64,000 nt of DNA, taken from NCBI GenBank assembly GCA_016839945.1, contig JAEOTE010000025.1, positions 12,517-76,516 of the forward strand, in the 5' to 3' direction. The stretch is from Candidatus Heimdallarchaeota archaeon. GTDB lineage: Archaea; Asgardarchaeota; Heimdallarchaeia; Heimdallarchaeales; Heimdallarchaeaceae. Each line of letters begins with the position of its first letter. Positions within the stretch are counted from its first letter, which is position 1. Positions 241 through 63,996 of this stretch are shown in pieces. The notes under the pieces are model-generated. The model was given only the letters and a program-made list of their open reading frames with translations, ran no database searches and was not told the origin of the DNA. The translations under genes and the position numbers were made by a program.

Positions 241-2160
241 TTGAACACATCATCTACATCATATAAAGGTTATAGAGGACAATCACTAGTAATAAATCTT
301 AGTGAGAATACAGTAAAGAAGATTTCTTCTGACAAAGATATGATTGAGAAGTATTTGGGAGGAAGAGGTTGGGCAATCAAATACCTTTTTGACAATTTGA
401 AACAAGGTATAGATCCATTAGAACAAGAAAATATTCTAGTAATAAGCTTAGGACCTTTAACTGGAACATTGGCACCATCAACTGCTAGATATACAATAGC
501 GTCTAAATCTCCTCTAACTGGAGGAATAGGGTATGCAAATGCTGGAGGGCATTTTGCTCCAGAATTAGCATATGCAGGATATGATGCTATTTTTATCCAT
601 GGAAAATCAAAGAATCCTGTATATCTATTCATAGAGGATGATCGTGTTGTATTGAAAGATGCAAAGCATCTATGGGGAAAAGATACATGGGAAACTGATG
701 AATTAATTAAAAAAGAATTAGAGAATGAAAATTTTCAGATCTTAAGTATTGGACAGGGAGGTGAGAATCTAGTACGATATTCTGCTATAATGAACAATCT
801 TTCACGAGCTGCAGCGAGAACTGGAGTAGGAGCAGTAATGGGCTCAAAGAATCTAAAAGCAATTGCTGTTAGGGGAACAGGAAGTGTTGAAGTAGCAGAA
901 CCTGAAAAATTCAACAAACTAATTGATGTAACACTTGAAAAGATATATGATGATCCTGCATATCCAAGTTTATCATTTTATGGGACACCCTTCCTAGTTG
1001 ACTTATCATTCATTAGTGGAGGTCTTGCTACTAACAATAATCAAAGAGGGAATTTTGATAAGTATGAAGAAATCTCTGCAGAAACATTCGAAGAAAATTA
1101 TAAGGTGAAATCAGAAAGCTGCTTCGCTTGCCCAATTCATTGTGGAAAATATTCAAAGATTGAAACAGGAAAATATGCTGGAACTAAAGGAGGGAGTCCA
1201 GAATATGAAACAATTGTATGTTTAGGTTCCAAATGTGGAATAGGTAATTTAGAAGCTATATTACATGCAAACGAGCTATGTAATAGATTCGGACTTGATA
1301 CTATCTCATTGGGAGACACAGTAGCCTTTGCAATGGAAGCATATGAGAAAGGTGCGTTATCATCAGCTGACACTGATGGCATTGAATTAAGCTGGGGAAA
1401 TGAAGATGCTCTAATCAAACTAATTAAGAAAATAGCATTCAGAGATGGCTTTGGCGATTTATTAGCTGAGGGTGTTAAAAGGGTTTCAGAAAAGATTGGA
1501 AAGGGTTCAGAGAAATATGCTCTCCACATTAAAGGGATGGAACCTCCTGCATATGATGTTAGAACTGCAAAAGCATTTGGTTTAGGTTGGGCCACCGCAA
1601 CAAGAGGTGCTGACCACCTCGCAGCTTTACCCAATTTCGAATTACTCGGGTATGAGCCAGAAAAAGGTCAGAGCTGGTTTGGCTCTGAAAAAACTGTGGA
1701 TCCATTTGCTTGGGAAGGAAAATCCCGCATGGTAGTTTGGCATGAAAATTTAGGAGCTATTGTAGATTCTGCTGAAATGTGCAAGTATACTTGCTTTTCT
1801 GCATATGCCGTCAAAGAAGATGATATGGCCCAATTCATACAATATGCGACTGGAAAGAAAATAACTGGTGAGGATATACTTGAAATTGGAGAACGAATTT
1901 TTAATTTGGAGAGGCTTTTTAATCTAAGAGAAGGAATTGGTGCGGAAGAAGATAGGTTGCCTGATCGTTTTACAAAGGAACCATTTACTGAAGGACCAGC
2001 AAAAGGACAAATAGTTGAACTAGATAAAATGCTACCTGAGTACTATGCAATCCGCAATTGGGATTATAAAACTGGTTTCCCAAAAGAAGAAAACTTAACG
2101 ATACTTGGGCTCTTAGATTCAGCTCTGAAATACGATTTAGTTTCTAAAAAGGAGGGATAA
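241..2160 (+). CDS. aor: Tungsten-dependent aldehyde:ferredoxin oxidoreductase family protein
   Basis: LGGRG, KSPLTG, GGHFAPEL, GAVMGSKNLKAIAV, CFACPIHC, EYET, GLDTIS and RGADHL motifs; 639 aa; TTG start. Confidence 0.95.
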   Translation: MNTSSTSYKGYRGQSLVINLSENTVKKISSDKDMIEKYLGGRGWAIKYLFDNLKQGIDPLEQENILVISLGPLTGTLAPSTARYTIASKSPLTGGIGYANAGGHFAPELAYAGYDAIFIHGKSKNPVYLFIEDDRVVLKDAKHLWGKDTWETDELIKKELENENFQILSIGQGGENLVRYSAIMNNLSRAAARTGVGAVMGSKNLKAIAVRGTGSVEVAEPEKFNKLIDVTLEKIYDDPAYPSLSFYGTPFLVDLSFISGGLATNNNQRGNFDKYEEISAETFEENYKVKSESCFACPIHCGKYSKIETGKYAGTKGGSPEYETIVCLGSKCGIGNLEAILHANELCNRFGLDTISLGDTVAFAMEAYEKGALSSADTDGIELSWGNEDALIKLIKKIAFRDGFGDLLAEGVKRVSEKIGKGSEKYALHIKGMEPPAYDVRTAKAFGLGWATATRGADHLAALPNFELLGYEPEKGQSWFGSEKTVDPFAWEGKSRMVVWHENLGAIVDSAEMCKYTCFSAYAVKEDDMAQFIQYATGKKITGEDILEIGERIFNLERLFNLREGIGAEEDRLPDRFTKEPFTEGPAKGQIVELDKMLPEYYAIRNWDYKTGFPKEENLTILGLLDSALKYDLVSKKEG

Positions 2161-43328: not shown

Positions 43329-43418
43329 TGGAGCCTTAGAGGGGAGTTGAACCCCTGTCCTGTGATTTTCTCGATAGATTTACGAGATCACTGCTCTGGA
43401 CCGCTGAGCTACCAAGGC
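43329..43418 (-). tRNA. tRNA-Thr(CGU) with 13-nt intron (43368-43380) at 37/38 and encoded CCA
   Basis: GCCTTGG/CTAAGGC acceptor stem, GCTC/GAGC D stem, GTGAT/ATCAC anticodon stem, AGGGG-TTCAACT-CCCCT T arm, U73-CCA; intron CGAG pairs with exon CTCG. Confidence 0.93.
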
Positions 43419-44951: not shown

Positions 44952-46955
44952 TTGCGAACACACAAAGTTAAAAGTTTGATATTTGTTTCAACGATGATTC
45001 TAGGATTAGTCCTAGCAAGTATATTAGGTTCTTCAATGAACTTCTCACCCTTAGAAAACACAACCTCTTTATCCCCCAATAATGAAATAATTTTATTTAA
45101 TAACACAGATCCAATTATTGATGGATATTTAGATAGCTATTCAGACGAATGGGAAAATGCAACAATTTTAACTACTACCTATGGATTCCCAACTACAACA
45201 ATAACAATACGTGTGCAAGCAAATGAGACATATTTATTCATGGGATTCAGTTTTACAATTCCTGAATATTCTCCAATAAATACAACTATACCTACAGGTG
45301 ATAGTTATAATAACCAATCTCATACTTGGTTTACAATAGTATTTGACAATAATTTTGACCAAAAAATTGGAAATGAATTGTCTCCTGGAGATGCTATTGC
45401 TGTAAATTATAGAGCTGAAGGAGCTTATGATTGTTTCATTAATGGAACATCTCCTGAATCTTTTGTACTGGATGTAAACGCAACCGGTTTTAACGATGCA
45501 ATTGGATTTCTAACCCAAAAAGAAGATGATTTTCATAATTATGAAATATCAATAGAAGTTGCAAAGAAGTTGAATTCAGGCGATGAAAATGGGTATGATA
45601 TGAGAGTTCATGAAAGTGACAAATTGAAGTTTCTACTTCTAGCTTTTGAGAATGAGACAGCAGTATATAATTATACTACTTTAAATAGTCACATCACTGC
45701 CTGGAAAACTATAAGCTTAGAAACACAACACACTTACTTCTCCTATGTTGAAACTTATGATGAAATAGATGCTCTTCTATATGTCTCAGATTCATCATAT
45801 ACAAGTTTTTATAATCTGACAAGTATTGCTCATTTCTTATATCAATATGGAATGAACGCAACTATTGTTTTAGAGGATGCTTACGAATTTACAACTCCAA
45901 GTCTTGATTTAGTAGACTTAGTAATATTGCTTGGTTCTTTGACTGATTTAACTGAAGAAGAAATAGAAGCTCTTAGATTCTATGCAGCTGCTGGTGGAAG
46001 TCTAATGATATTAGCTGATGGAACAGATTCTGAAAGCAAGATTAATGATTTATTAACTCATTTTGATATGGAAATTTATAACTCAACTATTATCTCTAAG
46101 AATATTGCAGTTAATTCTTCTATTATAGTAACTGGAAATGATATCATAGATTTACCTTTTCTGGACTCTTCTACACTGTTAACTAATCAACCAATAAACG
46201 AAGTTGTTTATTATGGATCTGCTATTAACTTTACTGATGAGATTGGAGAAAAAATAATCCAATTCCAAGAAGGAGATTTGTATTCCACAATAAATGTGAC
46301 AGGTGATTACTACATAGATTTGGATAAAAATGGTGAGTTCAATTCTTCAATCGATCTTTCTCTTAATGATTCAGCAACATTGCAGGCAGCCGTGGAATTA
46401 CAAAGAGGAGGAAAAATAATAGTTACAGCTTCTGCTGAATTATTTAATCAAACTGCCTTCGCTCAAAAAGACAATAAGTACTTCTTACTCCGAGAAATAC
46501 AATGGTTGTTGAACTCTCAAAATAGAATAAACATTCAAAGTTATGAAGTGCTTGAATCAGAAGTAGTAGAAGGTGAGGATATTCATGTCACCATCACAAT
46601 TAAGGGAGACAATGATACTGTCCTTGATGATGTTCATGTATGGGTTACTCTTCAAACATTCAAGACAGATATAAATTCATCCGATTTATCAATAAAGGAA
46701 GATGGCATTAGCTACAATGGTTCTATAAATACTGACGTAGCTCCAGTAGCATTTGTTGATGTGTCAATTAGAATGCATAAAAGAGGATATGGCTACAATG
46801 AAACTGCACTTTATCAAGTTTTTATTGACCCACTACCAAGAGGCTTTATTAAAATAGATATTGTAGCTCTAATTATATTCGTTTGTTCTATTGGACTAGC
46901 AGGTATTGGAGCTTTTGCAATAAAGAAATACAAGTTCGAAAGCAATGGCGAATAA
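44952..46955 (+). CDS. Membrane-anchored glycoprotein, OST48/Wbp1-like (GIFT plus Ig domain) with N-terminal DOMON/CBM9-like domain
   Basis: Signal peptide, PIIDG....EW, DLVILLG..LTEEEIEALR.Y...GGSLMILAD, C-terminal HKRGYGY..QVFIDPL then TM; many sequons. Confidence 0.68.
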   Translation: MRTHKVKSLIFVSTMILGLVLASILGSSMNFSPLENTTSLSPNNEIILFNNTDPIIDGYLDSYSDEWENATILTTTYGFPTTTITIRVQANETYLFMGFSFTIPEYSPINTTIPTGDSYNNQSHTWFTIVFDNNFDQKIGNELSPGDAIAVNYRAEGAYDCFINGTSPESFVLDVNATGFNDAIGFLTQKEDDFHNYEISIEVAKKLNSGDENGYDMRVHESDKLKFLLLAFENETAVYNYTTLNSHITAWKTISLETQHTYFSYVETYDEIDALLYVSDSSYTSFYNLTSIAHFLYQYGMNATIVLEDAYEFTTPSLDLVDLVILLGSLTDLTEEEIEALRFYAAAGGSLMILADGTDSESKINDLLTHFDMEIYNSTIISKNIAVNSSIIVTGNDIIDLPFLDSSTLLTNQPINEVVYYGSAINFTDEIGEKIIQFQEGDLYSTINVTGDYYIDLDKNGEFNSSIDLSLNDSATLQAAVELQRGGKIIVTASAELFNQTAFAQKDNKYFLLREIQWLLNSQNRINIQSYEVLESEVVEGEDIHVTITIKGDNDTVLDDVHVWVTLQTFKTDINSSDLSIKEDGISYNGSINTDVAPVAFVDVSIRMHKRGYGYNETALYQVFIDPLPRGFIKIDIVALIIFVCSIGLAGIGAFAIKKYKFESNGE

Positions 46956-47782: not shown

Positions 47783-48892
47783 CTATGTTTTGATTTCATC
47801 TTCATTCTGTGTTTCTTCGATTTCTTCTTCTTTCTTCTTATCTTCTTTTTGTTTATAATCCTTCAAAAATATTGAAGTAATTGCTGCTGTAATTAGAGTA
47901 AGACCTGTCCCTATAAGTGTTTGATAAATAATCGAAGCACCAGTTATTGCGGGATCTATAAGAAGACCCTCCATTAAAGATTGTGTTGTAATTGTTCCTA
48001 CTCCTAATCCTGCTGGAGTAACAATTCCTGCTAGCAATGTTATTGAAGTTATAGAGGCAGAATCAATCAAAGAAAGGGTTTCTCCAAATGCCAATAGAGT
48101 AAATTTGAGAGAATAAAATTCCAGAATCCACCTTACAATTGTTGTAATAACTACATAAGTTGCAATAATTCTCTGTTTATACAGATTTTTTAGTGATGAG
48201 TAATAATTTAGCATAGCGGGATGAAAGGTATTCTCAAGCCAAAGATCTCCTTTCGATGAGAATCTCCCAACTATTTTTCTCAATATTTTGTAGAATATCT
48301 CTCCAACAGGGGGTAGGAATAAAATAAAAGATAATACGATTGTTCCAACAAGAGCGGAATAAAAAATAACCTTAGTCACAGTTTCAATTGTTGCAGCTTT
48401 ATTCGGATCAATTAATTCAAAGTTTTGAATAATCGTCGGAATTGTTTTACCTAAAGCTACAATAAAGAAAATTAAAACTACAAAGAGATCTAGTATTCGA
48501 AAGAGGACGATAGCTGCAAGAGAAGAAGTTCTTGGAATTGAAACTGATCTCTTGTTGATCTCAACACTAACTATCTCTCCAGATTTTAAAGGACCCAATG
48601 TGCTAAATCCATATCCCACAAAGAAAGGAATAAGGAAATTTTTGAAAGAAAGACCTTTCGAAGATGGTTTAACAAGGACATAGAACCGAAATGCTTTGAT
48701 GAAGAGACTAATAACCATGAAGGCTAATGCTAATAACAAGAATCCAAATGCTGATTGTAAGAATAAACCAAAAACATTACCTAAAGGTTCTTGCTTGTTT
48801 AAGTGATAAAAGAAATAAACAAGTGTTCCAAGCATAACCAAAATCACAAGTATTCTGAAGAAGTACTTTCGAAAAAAATGTTTTATGTTCAT
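47783..48892 (-). CDS. Lysylphosphatidylglycerol-synthase TM-like / flippase-like (UPF0104) membrane protein
   Basis: KAFRF..L, P.KSGE, FRILD, TPAGLG; about 8 hydrophobic segments. Confidence 0.82.
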   Translation of the reverse strand: MNIKHFFRKYFFRILVILVMLGTLVYFFYHLNKQEPLGNVFGLFLQSAFGFLLLALAFMVISLFIKAFRFYVLVKPSSKGLSFKNFLIPFFVGYGFSTLGPLKSGEIVSVEINKRSVSIPRTSSLAAIVLFRILDLFVVLIFFIVALGKTIPTIIQNFELIDPNKAATIETVTKVIFYSALVGTIVLSFILFLPPVGEIFYKILRKIVGRFSSKGDLWLENTFHPAMLNYYSSLKNLYKQRIIATYVVITTIVRWILEFYSLKFTLLAFGETLSLIDSASITSITLLAGIVTPAGLGVGTITTQSLMEGLLIDPAITGASIIYQTLIGTGLTLITAAITSIFLKDYKQKEDKKKEEEIEETQNEDEIKT

Positions 48893-48985
48893 CCGTTTGT
48901 ACCTTCAAATTCTATAAAAATAGATTTTCATATCAACAATCTAGAAGGATGAAGAAAGGAAAGGAATTAAGTTGCTTTGTTTTGA

Positions 48986-49150
48986 TTACCCAGTTTCGAC
49001 TCCGCCTTCTAGGAACCATTCGTAGGTACATTCACGACATACTTGTTTCTTTCTATAGACAGGATTATGACCAAAATAAGCAATTGGTTTAGACTTATCC
49101 TCAACTTCTTTTAAATTGCGACTATGACATTTAGGACATTCTTTAGCCAT
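48986..49150 (-). CDS. Small Zn-ribbon protein (54 aa), absent from the ORF track
   Basis: MAKECPKCHSRNLKEVEDKSKPIAYFGHNPVYRKKQVCRECTYEWFLEGGVETG*; AGGTGA SD upstream. Confidence 0.85.
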   Translation of the reverse strand: MAKECPKCHSRNLKEVEDKSKPIAYFGHNPVYRKKQVCRECTYEWFLEGGVETG

Positions 49151-49439
49151 TTCTAATTTTCACCTTTAGAATTGTTTCTTGCTTCTTTCTTTAGTCACAA
49201 CCTATAAAAAATTTGTGTAAGTTTCAATTGATGTTTAAAGTTTTCTTTTAAATGTTAAGGAAATTTTTAGAATAAATCATTAATTATGTGATTTATGTCG
49301 GAATGTTTTATACAAATAGAGTGTTAAAACACCCTAAATAGTTCTAGACATATTAAAAATGATATTAAAATATGCTAACCTGCTTTAGATTTTTTTCTTT
49401 TTTATGTGAATTTTACTCTATATAAGAATTCTTTAAAAT

Positions 49440-51083
49440 ATGAAAAATATAATCACATTAATGCAAACCATTGGAGATTTTTATGATGCATATATCAAGA
49501 ACAAGGAAGATTTTCCTGACATTGATTATTTTTACAATGATGTCCCTCAAACATACGGTGATGCTGTAGATTTAGCACTTTCAATGCCTGAGTTTAAAAT
49601 AGACTTAAATAAATTACAAGAAGCTAAAGAAGTTCTTCTTAATTATCATAAAAAACTAGGTTTGCTAACACCTAAAGTAAAAGATCATATTTTAAACCTG
49701 GAAAAAGGAGTAGTCATCGCAGGACAACAAGCAACAATCTTCGGTGGTTCAGGAATTATAGGTAACAAAATTGCTGCTCTAGCCAATATTAATGAAATAA
49801 GTAAAGAAAAGGGAAAAGAGTTAATTCCTGTTTTTCTAGTTAATACTCATGATGGAATTCAACCAGAAATAACAACAATACATTTACCTAATAACCAATC
49901 ATCGACAAGTAAACCTATTATTTTACAAGATGTAAAAGATGGAGTAACATTGAACACCATTCAATCAAATAATCCAAGTTGGTTATACGAAAATCTAAAT
50001 ATAATAAGAAACAACTTCAATGAATTCAAAACAACTATTGATAAAGATAATCAGAAATTATTTAACGAAAAAGTTGACCATGTGCTTACTTTTCTAAGAG
50101 AAACATATAGAGCATCTTTAAATCTAGGGGAATGGGTTACATTAATTTGGGGTATTCAAGCAAATATAATCAATAATTGGGGTATAGTCTTTTTACCATC
50201 ATCCGATGAAAGAATTAGAGATTTAACTACAAGCGGTTACGAATACATCTTAAAAAATAGAAAAGAATACATAGATGAATTTAATTCCGCAACCTCCAAG
50301 ATTAAAGAAATGAATCTTAAGTCTACTACAGCTCCCAAGAAAAATGATTACTCTCCCTTCTTTTATGAGTGCCTTAACGATGGATACCGCATAAAATTAA
50401 CTTGTACTGAAAATGAAAATGAATTACAGTTTCATGGAGTGTGTCCAATAGACGAGGTTGAGTACTCATTTGCAGTAGATAAAAATAATCCTGACTTATC
50501 TTCTTATAGCAAATATCTATCACCAAGGTTAGACACAAATCAAGCAATATTACAGACTTTCTTACCAACTTATATTAGGATTTCAGGTCCAGGTGAAATT
50601 AATTATAATGCTCAAGTTATTCCTCCAATAAGGAAAATTGGAATTCAATTTCCAATTTATGTGAAGTATACGCGAATGCTTTATAATACTCCATGGATAG
50701 AGAAAATAGCAAACGATTCAACAGTTGAAAAGCACTCTCTCTTTACAAAAGATTTCTTTAGCTTTCTTGGAAAAATTGCAAAATCACGAAGAAGAAAAGA
50801 AAAGGATCAACTTAGAGAAGCAACAATCACACTTACAGATTTTATTAAATCCAGAAAATCTGAATTAGAAAAATTGAAGGAAACACCAATACATCTACTA
50901 GAGAAATACAAATCTTATCAATTTGGAATGTATGATGAAAGACATCATTGGCAAGAAGTTAGTTGGCCTTGGTTTGTTATGGCTATAATAACGGGTTTAA
51001 ACGATTGTTTAGCTTCCTATAAACGATACTATTCTGGAGATTTACCTATTGGTGGAATAGGGTTTATTAATTCAAGATTGTAA
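49440..51083 (+). CDS. bshC: Bacillithiol biosynthesis cysteine-adding enzyme BshC-like
   Basis: 547 aa; VIAGQQ..FGG....NK, PVFLV.THD, LSP, Q.FLPT..RISGPGEINY.AQ, WQE; convergent with bshA. Confidence 0.8.
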   Translation: MKNIITLMQTIGDFYDAYIKNKEDFPDIDYFYNDVPQTYGDAVDLALSMPEFKIDLNKLQEAKEVLLNYHKKLGLLTPKVKDHILNLEKGVVIAGQQATIFGGSGIIGNKIAALANINEISKEKGKELIPVFLVNTHDGIQPEITTIHLPNNQSSTSKPIILQDVKDGVTLNTIQSNNPSWLYENLNIIRNNFNEFKTTIDKDNQKLFNEKVDHVLTFLRETYRASLNLGEWVTLIWGIQANIINNWGIVFLPSSDERIRDLTTSGYEYILKNRKEYIDEFNSATSKIKEMNLKSTTAPKKNDYSPFFYECLNDGYRIKLTCTENENELQFHGVCPIDEVEYSFAVDKNNPDLSSYSKYLSPRLDTNQAILQTFLPTYIRISGPGEINYNAQVIPPIRKIGIQFPIYVKYTRMLYNTPWIEKIANDSTVEKHSLFTKDFFSFLGKIAKSRRRKEKDQLREATITLTDFIKSRKSELEKLKETPIHLLEKYKSYQFGMYDERHHWQEVSWPWFVMAIITGLNDCLASYKRYYSGDLPIGGIGFINSRL

Positions 51084-51085
51084 GT

Positions 51086-52198
51086 TTACAATATCTTTTG
51101 ATACCAATCAAGATACATGTTTGTTATTTTTACAGATTCAAACTGATTGACTACTTTTTCTCTACCTTTTTTTCCTAATGATTTAGTTTTTGATTCATCT
51201 TCAAGTAATTGTATCATATAGTTTACAAAAGTATCTATATCTTCCAATTCATATACAAAACCGTTCTCATTGTGATCTAATACTTCAGTAACTCCACCAA
51301 CATCCGGTGCTATTACAGGAACTTCACATGCCATTGCTTCTGCCAGTGTTAAACCAAAGCTCTCTTTAGAGCTCGCAGATAGTAAAGCAGATGCACAGTT
51401 GTATATGGGAGTCAAGGTGTTTCGAACTCCTTGAAAAATAACATGCTCACGAATATCTAGTTGGTTTGCCAATTCTTCACTTTTCTTTCTCTCAGGACCT
51501 TCACCAACCATAATAAGACCAACATCTGGAAATTGTTTGACAACTTCTGAAAAAGCTTCTACAATGAAAGGTGTGTTTTTAATAGGTCTAAAGTTTGACA
51601 CATGAACAAAATTCTTCTCATGTTTAATTCTGAAATCACATATCTGAGTGTCAATTTTTCTATATTTATGGATGTCAATAGGATTGTAAAGAACCTCAAT
51701 TTCTCTGTCATTAGCAAATTTAGTAGCTAATTCGTTTTTCATATAATTTGATACAGTCGAAAGACCATCAACAGAATTTAAGACGTGAGAAATTATTGGA
51801 TTGTAAGCAGGATCAATCCCTAAAGTGTGAATATCGGAACCATGAGCTGTTATGGCTACAGGTACATTTGTTATTTGTTTCGCCAAATATGCAGATACTC
51901 CAACTGGAATGGCATAATGAATATGTAAAAGATCTAAATCCCATTTTTTGGTTATTTGAGCCAATTTTGATGCAGCTAGAATTGTGTAAGGTGCACCTAT
52001 ATCCCTGAAAAGTGGGTAGGAAAGGATATCTACCAAATGAAGTGTAATATTTGGATGTCTATATGTTCTTAGTAAAAAAGGTGTATCATAACTAATGAGA
52101 TGTACATCATGACCCATTTTAGCTAACTCTATAGCGATTTGAGTTCCAACAATACCTGACCCTCCAACAGTTGGAAAACAATTAATTCCTATTTTCAT
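51086..52198 (-). CDS. bshA: N-acetyl-alpha-D-glucosaminyl L-malate synthase
   Basis: MKIGINCFPTVGGSG, YPLF...PY, HIHYAIP, HGSDI, HVSNFRPIK, ESFGLTLAEAMAC.VPV. Confidence 0.9.
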   Translation of the reverse strand: MKIGINCFPTVGGSGIVGTQIAIELAKMGHDVHLISYDTPFLLRTYRHPNITLHLVDILSYPLFRDIGAPYTILAASKLAQITKKWDLDLLHIHYAIPVGVSAYLAKQITNVPVAITAHGSDIHTLGIDPAYNPIISHVLNSVDGLSTVSNYMKNELATKFANDREIEVLYNPIDIHKYRKIDTQICDFRIKHEKNFVHVSNFRPIKNTPFIVEAFSEVVKQFPDVGLIMVGEGPERKKSEELANQLDIREHVIFQGVRNTLTPIYNCASALLSASSKESFGLTLAEAMACEVPVIAPDVGGVTEVLDHNENGFVYELEDIDTFVNYMIQLLEDESKTKSLGKKGREKVVNQFESVKITNMYLDWYQKIL

Positions 52199-53829: not shown

Positions 53830-55395
53830 TTAAATCTCTGGCCATTTGAGAGTATTTTTCCAATTAAGGATTCTGTATAATTTTGTTGGATTCACGTCTT
53901 TCAATGGTGCATAATTTACACCAAAGTTATCCAGTTTTTTATTAAATTGTTTTAAACGTTTTATGAATGATTCATAGTTCTTACTCTCTCTTAAAGTCCA
54001 ACCAATCTCAGCAACAGCAGCTAATCTAGGAAAGATTTGCCATTCCAACCTTTCTCTGTTAGGAACCCACTCACACCACAATGGGGCTTCAACACCAAGA
54101 ATTTTTTCATGGTATTTTTCATGGAGGTTTTTTGGTATAGGTTCAAAGGAATATGTTTTTTGTAGAGGAATTAGAATGTAATTGTAATCTAAATATACGT
54201 GAAATAAATGAGAAGATACAATACTCCCTCCATTATAAATGTGATTTAGAATCTCGCTTTTCTTCCTCAACCACCATTGAGCAATTACTTCTTTATCTAT
54301 ACCATCATATAGTATTTCATTCCATCCCATTGCCTTTTTATCTTGAGATTTTAAGTAATCAACAATTCGTTTTGTGAAATAATTGCGAAGATCCTTAGTT
54401 TTTTTGATTTTTTCATCTTTCATTCTAGATTTACAATCAGCACATTTTTTCCAACGTTTTATGGGAACCTCATCTCCACCAATATGTATTATATCAGAAG
54501 GAAATAATTCCATTATCTCATTTAATGTGTTTTTTAGAAAATTGAAGGTTTCCTCTTGACCAACGCAGAAAATATCTTTGAAAATACCTGGTTTTATTGC
54601 TACTTCTTTTTGTTTTTTTTGACAACTTAATTCTGGATATGCCGCAATAGCTGCTCTACAATGCCCTGGCATTTCAATTTCTGGGATTACAGTAATGAAT
54701 CTGTCCTGAGCATATAACACAATCTCCTTTATATCTTCTTGAGTGTAAAAACCTTGGTGAGGTTTTCCTCGATATTTTTTACTCCACCATGTCTTGATTT
54801 TTGTATCTTCTCTTTTTGATCCAATATCAATTAATTTTGAATATTTCTTTATTTCAATCCTCCAACCTTGATCCTCTGTAAGGTGCCAATGGAAAACGTT
54901 CATCTTCATCAAAGCAAGAAGATCTAAGATGTGCTTGATTGTATCTATATCGTGAAAATGTCTTCCTACATCAAGCATGAATCCTCTCCATTTAAATCTA
55001 GGATAATCTTCAATCTTTAAACATGGAACTGTATGAATTTTTTCTTTGGAATCAATCTTTATTATCAGTTCTTCATGTATTAATTGTCTTAATGATTGAA
55101 TTCCATAAAAAATACCTTTTGCAGTAAGTGCTTTAATGAAAATCGTTTCTTTGAGCACTTCGAGTATGTAGCCTTCATCTTCTAAATTTTTTAAGGAATC
55201 ATCAAGAATAAAATTAATACTATTTGGATTATTACCACTATTTACTTCTTTAAGCTTATAACCTATAGATTCTATCATTAGCTCTAGGAAATACTTTACT
55301 AATGTAGAAAGATTTGATGTTGAATAAATGCAAGTACTTGAATTAAGGTAAAACTCTCCTTCTTTGTATTGAATATCTACTGGTAATGGTATCAT
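53830..55395 (-). CDS. Beta-N-acetylhexosaminidase (GH20)
   Basis: DYPRFKWRGFMLDVGRHF, HWHLTEDQGWR, PEIEMPGH, catalytic HIGGDE, WNE, LWCE. Confidence 0.96.
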   Translation of the reverse strand: MIPLPVDIQYKEGEFYLNSSTCIYSTSNLSTLVKYFLELMIESIGYKLKEVNSGNNPNSINFILDDSLKNLEDEGYILEVLKETIFIKALTAKGIFYGIQSLRQLIHEELIIKIDSKEKIHTVPCLKIEDYPRFKWRGFMLDVGRHFHDIDTIKHILDLLALMKMNVFHWHLTEDQGWRIEIKKYSKLIDIGSKREDTKIKTWWSKKYRGKPHQGFYTQEDIKEIVLYAQDRFITVIPEIEMPGHCRAAIAAYPELSCQKKQKEVAIKPGIFKDIFCVGQEETFNFLKNTLNEIMELFPSDIIHIGGDEVPIKRWKKCADCKSRMKDEKIKKTKDLRNYFTKRIVDYLKSQDKKAMGWNEILYDGIDKEVIAQWWLRKKSEILNHIYNGGSIVSSHLFHVYLDYNYILIPLQKTYSFEPIPKNLHEKYHEKILGVEAPLWCEWVPNRERLEWQIFPRLAAVAEIGWTLRESKNYESFIKRLKQFNKKLDNFGVNYAPLKDVNPTKLYRILNWKNTLKWPEI

Positions 55396-55518: not shown

Positions 55519-57981
55519 ATGACCGTTGCTGATTTTTTCCTAGAGATTTGGACAAGGTTTCAAAGTTGGGATATAACAACAATATTCGGAATAGTTCTAG
55601 CTGCGATAGGTTTATTCTTCCTTATTAGCGAAATTCGAACTAAAATAAAATATGGAACTACTTCCGAAAATTTAATGTTAGCTTTTATCGCTCTTACATT
55701 TGGACTAGTCCTAGTTCTAATTACTAAATGGTTGTTAGCAATTGCATTAAGTTTCTTTGTTTTAGCGGTTTACCAGACTATACAATTAAGAGAATCACCT
55801 GTTTGGAGAGAATTAATGATCGTATCTGTAGTTACATATCTTGTATTTCTTGTAGGTACAGTTGGTGATTATATTTTTGAAGTTGTAACTGGTGAGAAGA
55901 ATGAAATCTTCACAGGTTGGGCTTACAACCTTATGATTTTTGTATTTATAATAATGGCATTAATCTTCTTTGGAAAGAAATTTGTGCTTGTAAGTCGATT
56001 AATGTCTCCACAAATTCTCTACCTAGTACTTTTTGCATTGGTTTATGTTGTTCTTTATCTTGGTACAAATATCCTTAGTAGAACAGCAGGAATAGAAGCA
56101 GAAAATCTAAATTGGTTTTACTTATCATCAGTATTAGATCAAAAAATAGCTGAAAGGATAATCTTTCTCTCTCTGGCTCCTTATGAAGTTCTTATTGTAG
56201 TATCGTTTGTAATGTATTTCATATCTGGTCCATTATTAACAAAACTTTTAGGAATCAAACCTGTTGAAGATGAAAGAATTTTGAAGATAGTTGAAGAAAT
56301 AAGAAAAAGACTAGGAATAAAGAGGAAAATAAAAGTTGGTTTTGTTGAAGCACCAATATTGAATGCAATGGCTTACGGTCCTTGGTTTGATCAGCGTATA
56401 GCCTTTATCTCACGCGAATTAAGCGATTTTACTGATGATGATATTAAAGGTATAGTCACTCATGAACTTGCTCATAATAAAAGATTGCATGTTGTATGGT
56501 TACAAATTATTGCATCTGCTGAGATGATTATTAAGAAAGCACTTCTTCTACCTGCTACAACTCTTGATTATGCAGCTTATAAACAGAATGTGCCTTTTGC
56601 CATTTACTTTTTAATTAACTATGGAATTATAGCATTCTTATTCATTTTTGTGAGGATTTTGGAGGGAGACGCAGACCTACAAACGAAGAAAGTAGGTTAT
56701 GGAAAAGAATTAGCACAGGTTCTGTACAAGCTTGAAGGTTTTTATCAAGGTATTGCTGGTGATTTCGGATTGAATGTACAACTGCTTACAGGGAAAGAAT
56801 TTACAGAAGAGGAAAAACAACGATTTCGAGGAGAAGCAGCCATTCGCTTATATCGCCATTTATATAGACCTGGAAGATGGGATATGATTTCCAATATCTT
56901 CATGTCGCATCCTAGAACAGCTTATAGGATTGTTGCAGTTCTGGAAGATGACTTCTCTCCAGTAAAAGGAGCACTTCTTCCTTATTGGCTTGTTTTACCA
57001 AACTTCATGCGAAGAAAAGCGATAAAACAATTGACAAATAAAAGAGAACAATTTTCCGAACTAATAACAGAAAAATATGATGAATATTATGGAGAAGAAG
57101 GAGTAAAAAACTTCCTAGAATTAACAAGAATGGAAGAACTTGTTTCTACACTAAAAGGTAGACATATTATTGCATATGATCATATTGCAGAAGATGTTGT
57201 TATAGGTGATGTTGAGGGGATTCAAATTAGTAAAACAATATGTCAACCTTTGCTTCTAAGAATTAAAACCCAAAAAGAAGAAAAACAAATTTTAATCACA
57301 GACTATGCTATAGCAGATGTTCAAAAAGATGGTCTTTATATATTAAAGAATGGAAGATTAGGAAAATTAACTTCTTGGGAAATTAATCCAAACAATAACA
57401 AACCAACTTTCATATTTGAAACCTTATCTGGAGAAAAGAAATCTTTTAAGACCAAGTATACAGGAAAAACTGTTGACTACTTTAATCAGCTAGTAGAAAA
57501 AAAAGTTATTTTCTACAAGGATGGATTGGATAGAGATGCTAAGATGAAGAGTTTTGAAATAGGATCTTCTTTTCAAAATACTGCATTTGTTTTCGAAGTT
57601 GATAATTCAGAAAAATATGAAACAATTGTAATTGGCGGTAATGAACTTATAATAGATCTTCCTCCCATACTTATGAGATTAGATAAAGATAAGATGAAAT
57701 CTCAACATAATCTACTTAAATCGTTAATTGGAAGTTCTGTAATCCTTTTTACAAAAGAAGAATTAGAGATAGGAATAGCTTGTGAAATATCAGAAGTTAC
57801 AGATAAAACCTTGAAATACAAAATCAAAGATAAGATATCAAAAATTGAGAAAAAGAAAATAGATTATATTTATCTATATGCTGATACTCCAAAATTTATG
57901 ATGAAGAAACATATTTCATTATTTGATAGGTTTCTATACTGGTTATCAAACCGAAGAGAAATGAAATACATCTTTGGTTAA
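55519..57981 (+). CDS. M48 (HtpX/Ste24-like) membrane zinc protease with extra TM helices and a long soluble C-terminal region
   Basis: NAMAYG, HELAH, EGDAD, SHP...R; multiple N-terminal TM segments. Confidence 0.88.
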   Translation: MTVADFFLEIWTRFQSWDITTIFGIVLAAIGLFFLISEIRTKIKYGTTSENLMLAFIALTFGLVLVLITKWLLAIALSFFVLAVYQTIQLRESPVWRELMIVSVVTYLVFLVGTVGDYIFEVVTGEKNEIFTGWAYNLMIFVFIIMALIFFGKKFVLVSRLMSPQILYLVLFALVYVVLYLGTNILSRTAGIEAENLNWFYLSSVLDQKIAERIIFLSLAPYEVLIVVSFVMYFISGPLLTKLLGIKPVEDERILKIVEEIRKRLGIKRKIKVGFVEAPILNAMAYGPWFDQRIAFISRELSDFTDDDIKGIVTHELAHNKRLHVVWLQIIASAEMIIKKALLLPATTLDYAAYKQNVPFAIYFLINYGIIAFLFIFVRILEGDADLQTKKVGYGKELAQVLYKLEGFYQGIAGDFGLNVQLLTGKEFTEEEKQRFRGEAAIRLYRHLYRPGRWDMISNIFMSHPRTAYRIVAVLEDDFSPVKGALLPYWLVLPNFMRRKAIKQLTNKREQFSELITEKYDEYYGEEGVKNFLELTRMEELVSTLKGRHIIAYDHIAEDVVIGDVEGIQISKTICQPLLLRIKTQKEEKQILITDYAIADVQKDGLYILKNGRLGKLTSWEINPNNNKPTFIFETLSGEKKSFKTKYTGKTVDYFNQLVEKKVIFYKDGLDRDAKMKSFEIGSSFQNTAFVFEVDNSEKYETIVIGGNELIIDLPPILMRLDKDKMKSQHNLLKSLIGSSVILFTKEELEIGIACEISEVTDKTLKYKIKDKISKIEKKKIDYIYLYADTPKFMMKKHISLFDRFLYWLSNRREMKYIFG

Positions 57982-63669: not shown

Positions 63670-63996
63670 TGGACGACGCGATAATACCCCTGATTTTGTT
63701 AGGAAGCCGTCTAGGACCTTCCTAGTAACATTCATCTATGCGCTTTACCCGGTTCATATGAACCCTATTTAAGCTTGCTCCAAGATGATTGACCGTTTCA
63801 ACGTATCCTATATCTTCCTCAGCAAATTATCTCAACAATGTCACCATTGTCTTCATCGCATCCTAGTCAACAGATATAGGTCGTTCCGTTTCTGTTCCAA
63901 GAGCCATGCTCTCACATGGTGGACTTGCGTCCACATCTTTTTACGGAGTCAGGAGGTTCCTCAGTGTAAACCGTAGTTACTCTACCGCCTCGTCCA
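63670..63996 (-). ncRNA. rnpB: Archaeal RNase P RNA
   Basis: Minus strand: P1 TGGACGAGGCG/CGCGTCGTCCA, CR-I GAGGAACCTCC, CR-II ACAGAAAC, CR-III TTGAAACGG, CR-IV AGATGAATG, CR-V ACAAAATCAGGGGTA; P4 CTCCTGA/TCAGGGG. Confidence 0.9.

Follow-up and report, generated by a model that had tools for sequence, protein, structure and literature searches.

The window analyzed here, a 64,000-nucleotide stretch of contig JAEOTE010000025.1 (positions 12,517 to 76,516) from Candidatus Heimdallarchaeota archaeon assembly GCA_016839945.1, encodes a BshA and an archaeal-type BshC that likely catalyze the initial and final reactions of a three-step route to bacillithiol or to a near low-molecular-weight thiol of the cysteinyl-glucosamine-malate (Cys-GlcN-malate) type. 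A true BshA, an archaeal-type BshC, and a matching deacetylase encoded elsewhere in the genome together make bacillithiol or a close variant the probable product of this archaeon. An earlier reading of the window from its letters alone (the sequence-only reading) had suggested that the lineage may use bacillithiol or a variant; its gene identities and its assignment of a bacillithiol-type pathway stand, while the product itself is a prediction from the genes. The two open reading frames are convergent, with bshC ending in a TAA at 51081-51083 and bshA in a reverse-strand TAA at 51086-51088, so that 2 bp separate the stops, exactly as first described. The host assembly comprises 3.0 Mb in 186 contigs and is 88% complete; the contig carrying the gene pair is 76.5 kb long, with the pair mid-contig.

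By family membership, the 370-residue product of bshA classifies as a true BshA. It scores 370.6 bits to TIGR03999, an equivalog-level model with a cut-off of 273.7, and 118.5 bits to the next family, and it has the two-domain architecture (Glyco_transf_4 plus Glycos_transf_1) of glycosyltransferase family 4 (GT4). Its nearest solved structures are all BshA (2JJM/3MBO, 5D00, 6N1X, and 6D9T, with E values from 1e-80 to 1e-72), followed by a next match at 2e-20. The score to the model for MshA, the corresponding enzyme of mycothiol biosynthesis, is 68.6 bits against a cut-off of 462.5. Ligand-binding and catalytic residues listed for Staphylococcus aureus BshA (H118, T120, N171, VSN202-204, K209, E280 of ESFG, and E288; PMC10361700) have as counterparts H119, S121, N172, VSN200-202, K207, E279 of the same ESFG motif, and E287, the sole change being the conservative replacement of Thr120 by S121.

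BshC is divergent, in agreement with the sequence-only reading, which had set it apart from a BshA close to the bacterial consensus. The 547-residue protein matches PF10079 at 80.4 bits (cut-off 27) across residues 12-407. An AlphaFold2 model built from 56 archaeal homologs, with a predicted local distance difference test score of 94.9 and a predicted template-modeling score of 0.93, spans the full-length Bacillus subtilis fold, including both the Rossmann-like core and the C-terminal helical domain. The top Foldseek match for the model is B. subtilis BshC, 4WBD (E value 2e-19, template-modeling score 0.68). The top VIA match is again 4WBD, with Z of 33.4 and a root-mean-square deviation of 2.7 A over 450 residues (model residues 8-545, chain residues 11-539); the next match is class I lysyl-tRNA synthetase (Z 21.1), and other class I synthetases follow at Z of about 10-12. 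Profile-profile comparison of archaeal with canonical BshC by hhalign gives a probability of 99.35%. The motifs that the first reading saw retained are in place, GQQ at residue 95, THD at 136, and GPGEINY at 383, and Q97, D138, E143, G383, G385, E386, and Y389, all common with bacterial BshC, are invariant in the 56 archaeal sequences. Because 4WBD is the top structural match, because the profiles match, and because the common residues are invariant, the protein is a genuine member of the BshC fold family, yet not an equivalog of the bacterial enzyme.

The archaeal proteins also carry a cysteine-bearing beta insert, at residues ~307-347 in the window BshC, where C311, C322, H332, and C335 make up a degenerate zinc ribbon. 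BshC from Thorarchaeota and Bathyarchaeia has a complete C-x5-C...C-x2-C ribbon in the insert. The window protein and its Heimdallarchaeaceae relatives have only the first and third ribbon cysteines (C311 and C335), plus C322 and a variable H332, and bacterial BshC is without cysteines at the insert position.

The second step requires a deacetylase, and here the sequence-only reading had reported, correctly, no bshB gene in the window. Four PIG-L genes (PF02585) occur in the genome, on contigs C104, C90, C101, and C91; none is on the window's contig and none reaches the BshB cut-offs. The C101 gene, singled out because of synteny in relatives, is predicted from sequence and gene neighborhood to be the pathway's missing deacetylase and the ortholog of the PIG-L gene that flanks bshA elsewhere. 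It has the zinc motifs AHPDD (residue 21) and HIDH (residue 111), and its nearest solved structures are BshB1 (2IXD and 6P2T). It is 39-49% identical to the PIG-L protein encoded directly beside bshA in Heimdall families f3 and f4, and 32-40% identical to the ones that Thorarchaeota and Bathyarchaeia encode in clusters with bshA and bshC; against the same bsh-linked proteins, the C104 and C90 paralogs are about 25% identical and the C91 paralog gives no match. Family relatives carry the bshB-type gene 11-24 kb from bshA and bshC on the same contig, two single-contig genomes included; in single-contig relatives, G006 and G007 for example, the distance is 11 kb. With a length of only 4.4 kb, C101 does not let this linkage be seen in the present assembly. 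The first reading was to fall if complete related genomes had no deacetylase; the gene is present here and in the single-contig relatives.

The deacetylase gene shares its operon with a C-x-x-C-containing paralog of thioredoxin reductase (TrxR), which scores 207.6 bits to TIGR01292 (cut-off 343). An ortholog at 43-83% identity was found in all 30 family relatives, adjoining the bshB-type gene in each, and a near-identical version of the 71-residue winged-helix-turn-helix gene that precedes the paralog was seen in the five loci inspected. In eight genomes of family f4, bshC itself has as its divergent neighbor a related TrxR-like gene (25-28% identity, with C-x-x-C retained); the best match of this TrxR-like gene in the present genome is the C101 paralog, by a small margin (124 vs. 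106 bits). Such linkage suggests that the C101 paralog likely reduces the thiol disulfide, or else thiolated proteins, in the place of YpdA/Bdr. The genome's most canonical TrxR is another gene, on contig C106 (302.4 bits). We considered the C101 paralog special for lacking the NADPH-associated HRR motif and withdrew the idea, the canonical C106 TrxR also being without it.

We infer substrates and product as follows. BshA would join N-acetylglucosamine (GlcNAc) from UDP-GlcNAc to L-malate, the PIG-L zinc deacetylase would then take off the acetyl group, and the archaeal-type BshC, with its fold resembling class I aminoacyl-tRNA synthetases, would add cysteine to the free amine. The resulting thiol would serve as a redox buffer and conjugation cofactor, might also take part in metal(loid) defense as the sequence-only reading had suggested, and its oxidized form would probably be recycled by the C-x-x-C TrxR paralog encoded with the deacetylase, substituting for the absent YpdA/Bdr. 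The DinB_2 superfamily includes bacillithiol and mycothiol S-transferases. Seven DinB_2-family genes are present in this 3-Mb genome, on contigs C99, C82, C15, C106, C105, C91, and C172; their products are possible thiol users or S-transferases. Also in favor of this pathway, a search of the genome for an alternative thiol route turned up no GCS2, the gamma-glutamylcysteine ligase. A CoA-disulfide-reductase-like protein scores 305 bits against a cut-off of 578.8, which leaves CoA as a possible thiol.

Several observations weigh against bacillithiol as the product. BshC scores 94.1 bits to the equivalog model TIGR03998, below the cut-off of 265.8, and by sequence it matches B. subtilis BshC 4WBD weakly (E value 4.7e-9), at a low 16-18% identity. 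The C101 deacetylase falls short of both BshB1 (TIGR04001, 85.2 vs. 182.5 bits) and BshB2 (TIGR04000, 65.5 vs. 195.25 bits). The BshA residue comparison covered the ligand-binding and catalytic positions listed in PMC10361700. A search for the bacterial redox partners, Bdr (YpdA) and Brx, found none in this 88%-complete genome: the best YpdA/Bdr scores, 75-82 bits against a TIGR04018 cut-off of 339.9, belong to TrxR-like proteins, and neither BrxA/B (TIGR04191; YphP/YqiW) nor YtxJ (TIGR04019) has a match. No one has yet reconstituted the BshC reaction in vitro, and this holds for the bacterial enzyme as well (PMC5790435), and bacillithiol has never been detected in any archaeon (PMC7278568). 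Finally, genomes of family f5 encode a full-length archaeal BshC-like protein, 27-29% identical to the Thor-type and window BshC, and no BshA. The f5 gene is always beside genes for a class I/II aminotransferase, an arginyl-tRNA synthetase, and an LPG_synthase_TM protein. The archaeal BshC branch, therefore, need not always act on GlcN-malate, and this pattern suggests that some of its members act on another substrate.

The same three enzymes might thus lead to a different end product, as the sequence-only reading also allowed, a new glycoside or thiol, through addition by BshC of a group that is not cysteine, use by BshA of an acceptor that is not L-malate, or a modification of the thiol such as the N-methylation seen in Chlorobi. 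The distance of BshC and of the deacetylase from their equivalog cut-offs, the insert absent from bacterial BshC, the f5 genes beside an aminotransferase, and the serine in BshA where S. aureus has Thr120 all speak for this reading. We consider it unlikely, given that BshA stands well above its equivalog cut-off with every other listed ligand residue kept, that the BshC motif residues common with bacteria do not vary across the archaeal clade, and that the association of the three genes mirrors the bacterial pathway exactly. A Cys-GlcN-malate-type thiol, bacillithiol or a near relative, remains the preferred product.

The distribution of the genes bears on their history. Of 83 genomes in the class, 69 have a PF10079 match and 55 a BshA that passes its cut-off; within the window's order, BshC occurs in 45 of 47 genomes and BshA in 46. 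In 26 of 27 Heimdallarchaeaceae loci, taken from GTDB species representatives, bshA and bshC lie tail to tail, from overlapping to about 40 bp apart. When 185,579 species genomes were scanned, the archaeal-type BshC turned up in records of Heimdall, Thor, "Promethearchaeota," and Bathyarchaeia, the only exceptions being two contigs, of 2.3 and 8.0 kb, in bins labeled bacterial. The shorter (L119, 2345 bp, in a Desulfaltia bin) carries an archaeal-type BshC only, and the longer (L114, 7975 bp, in a Krumholzibacteriaceae bin) a full archaeal-type bshB-bshC-bshA cluster. The BshA of L114 is nested, at 100% support, within Bathyarchaeia, which makes mis-binning likely. Across Heimdall, Thor, and Bathyarchaeia, bshA, bshC, and a PIG-L gene of the same clade adjoin or cluster in differing gene orders. 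The flanking genes common to 20-26 of the 27 loci of the f1-like (Heimdallarchaeaceae) type appear in almost no other loci; only the bshC-bshA pair crosses lineages.

Recent lateral acquisition from bacteria, or contamination at the binning stage, is very improbable for the window genes. Two observations might favor it: BshA is 42-44% identical to bacterial BshA, about the same as to other Asgard BshA, and family f7 of the Heimdallarchaeia does possess a bacterial-like canonical bshC-bshB1-bshA operon, with PF10079 scores of 265-280 bits and a BshB1 above cut-off at 236.6 bits. The f7 BshA falls within a bacterial clade of 58 rows, and the BshA sequences paired with archaeal BshC are separate from that clade, with a value of 97 in the Shimodaira-Hasegawa-like approximate likelihood ratio test (SH-aLRT), in a quick maximum-likelihood tree of 112 rows that is unrooted, has long branches, and includes only the bacteria nearest the query. 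In that tree, one group, with a weak support of 80, consists of the Heimdall sequences that occur with an archaeal BshC, and another, with a support of 97, of those from Thor and Bathyarchaeia. The phylogeny argues against a recent bacterial origin and leaves the acquisition undated. The genomic setting likewise opposes both transfer and contamination. The pair is located centrally on its contig of 76.5 kb, which carries a Tsr3 gene as well and, at its extreme end, an archaeal RNase P RNA of full model length (137.9 bits); GC content along the window is even, 0.30-0.36; the neighborhood is syntenic in relatives; and the archaeal BshC clade has no bacterial members save the two short contigs. 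The closest homologs of both proteins come from metagenome-assembled genomes (MAGs) named Heimdallarchaeaceae or Heimdallarchaeota, and the host is an archaeon of the Heimdallarchaeaceae. The ratio of nonsynonymous to synonymous substitution rates, taken against a relative 89-92% identical (89% for bshC), is 0.05 for bshA and 0.13 for bshC. Both genes are under purifying selection in a syntenic neighborhood, and for this reason they are long resident; the long residence that the sequence-only reading drew from the divergence of BshC is borne out by the near-universal presence of the pair in the order, by the archaeal confinement of the BshC clade, and by the position of BshA outside the sampled bacterial clade.

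That adjacency means nothing, with BshA a generic GT4 enzyme for surface glycans and the BshC-like protein in an unrelated role, is a disfavored and highly implausible reading: the genome did yield 12 first-look GT4 candidates, and the function of the BshC family is known from genetics only, but clustering of BshA, BshC, and one PIG-L clade recurs in varied orders in three archaeal lineages and is therefore hard to explain without a common pathway.

Compared with the bacterial system of BshA, BshB1/B2, and BshC in B. subtilis and B. anthracis and in S. aureus, the archaeal one draws on the same three families of enzymes, and its inferred chemistry is the same. BshA is alike at the equivalog level, BshC in its full-length fold and its GQQ, D-x4-E, and GPGE-NY motifs, and the deacetylase in its PIG-L zinc motif. 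The differences lie in the low identity and cysteine-bearing insert of BshC, in a BshB below its cut-offs, and in a TrxR paralog linked to bshB where YpdA/Bdr, BrxA/B, and YtxJ were not found in the 88%-complete genome. The closest counterparts are the bshA-bshB-bshC clusters of Thorarchaeota and Bathyarchaeia in MAGs annotated by NCBI, with BshC of the same clade (27-33% identity) and the same PIG-L clade; there the three genes are clustered and the ribbon is complete, whereas here bshB is on another contig and two of the four ribbon cysteines are kept. The f7 operon (e.g., locus L040) belongs to the same archaeal class and has the same predicted pathway but consists of bacterial-type proteins, relative to which the window genes are the older, archaeal type. 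Mycothiol biosynthesis by MshA, MshB, and MshC in Actinobacteria follows the same logic, a GT4 GlcNAc transferase, then a PIG-L deacetylase, then a cysteine ligase resembling class I synthetases; it differs in that the MshA acceptor is inositol phosphate and in that MshC is a homolog of cysteinyl-tRNA synthetase and not a member of the BshC family.

The genomic observation is already published and annotated, and the window chiefly adds one well-supported member. In 2020, Rawat and Maupin-Furlow listed InterPro hits in archaea, 39 for BshA and 39 for BshC and mostly Asgard, with only two YpdA homologs, and proposed that archaea may make bacillithiol (PMC7278568). NCBI annotation already names the proteins described here BshA and BshC. 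The statement in the sequence-only reading that bacillithiol is not a recognized archaeal thiol is, as regards prediction, out of date. A literature search on bacillithiol together with Asgard lineage names returned nothing beyond the 2020 review. A 2025 survey of RefSeq found no archaeon with a complete pathway under its thresholds (PMC12719100), a result explained by the divergence measured here.

Coordinates of the gene pair, its neighbors, and related genes elsewhere are collected in Table 1.

Table 1. Features of the window and of linked or related loci. Positions without a prefix refer to the window.
Feature	Position	Strand	Remarks
bshC-like gene, archaeal type	49440-51083	+	547 aa; putatively adds cysteine in a bacillithiol-type pathway
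bshA	51086-52198	-	370 aa; TIGR03999 equivalog
Presumed promoter region upstream of bshC	48893-49439	.	547-bp intergenic region in the open reading frame map; divergent flippase-like gene on the other side
Flippase-like LPG_synthase_TM membrane protein gene	47783-48892	-	divergent, upstream of bshC
tRNA-Thr(CGU)	43329-43418	-	
667-aa protein gene	44952-46955	+	
GH20 beta-N-acetylhexosaminidase gene	53830-55395	-	363 bits
820-aa protein gene	55519-57981	+	
Archaeal RNase P RNA	63674-63992	-	
bshB-type PIG-L deacetylase gene	C101:2264-2953	-	229 aa; PF02585 68.7 bits
The same gene in locus L006 coordinates	1444-2133	-	operon stretch C101:821-4398
C-x-x-C TrxR paralog gene	C101 (locus L006:2150-3160)	-	336 aa; CAVC motif; directly upstream of the deacetylase gene
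Winged-helix (MarR/TrmB-like) gene	C101 (locus L006:3249-3464)	-	71 aa; cysteine-free; precedes the TrxR paralog gene
f5 BshC-like gene, genome G057	L137:7155-8846		
f5 BshC-like gene, genome G060	L138:7569-9248		
f5 BshC-like gene, genome G049	L139:7287-8963		

The LPG_synthase_TM gene upstream of bshC is present in 21 of the 27 family loci. About 3.5 kb from the BshC-like gene of family f5 there is another LPG_synthase_TM gene; proximity to both types of BshC could have arisen by chance or be left over from old synteny. The GH20 gene, 1.6 kb from bshA, recurs in only eight of the 27 loci and is therefore probably unrelated to the pathway. The gene for the 667-residue protein is found in 24 of the 27; its product has sub-threshold matches only, to ABC_transp_aux, DUF4350, and the GIFT domain of eukaryotic IFT52 (23 bits vs. 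27.2). The 820-residue protein has an M48/M56-type zinc peptidase domain and a weak match to an N-terminal membrane domain, Imp-YgjV. The tRNA-Thr(CGU), 90 nt according to ARAGORN and 87 nt according to Rfam, is longer than a standard tRNA and so may hold an intron.

Beyond the window, we put forward tentatively, as something possible that we are more inclined to doubt than to assert, that Asgard archaea and Bathyarchaeia share an old, archaea-specific bacillithiol system, marked by a zinc-ribbon BshC, a BshB clade of its own, and, in Heimdallarchaeaceae, a C-x-x-C TrxR-like reductase instead of YpdA. If so, the archaeal lineage closest to eukaryotes would have relied on a sugar-cysteine thiol, and not on glutathione, as its redox buffer, and the cysteine donor in the BshC reaction might come to light through the archaeal BshC, together with a possible partner protein. 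Candidates through which to approach that reaction, and the disulfide reductase in organisms without YpdA, are offered by the archaeal BshC branch and the TrxR-like gene linked to bshB. If the product is confirmed, archaea would have their first demonstrated low-molecular-weight sugar-thiol, and it would come from the group nearest to eukaryotes.

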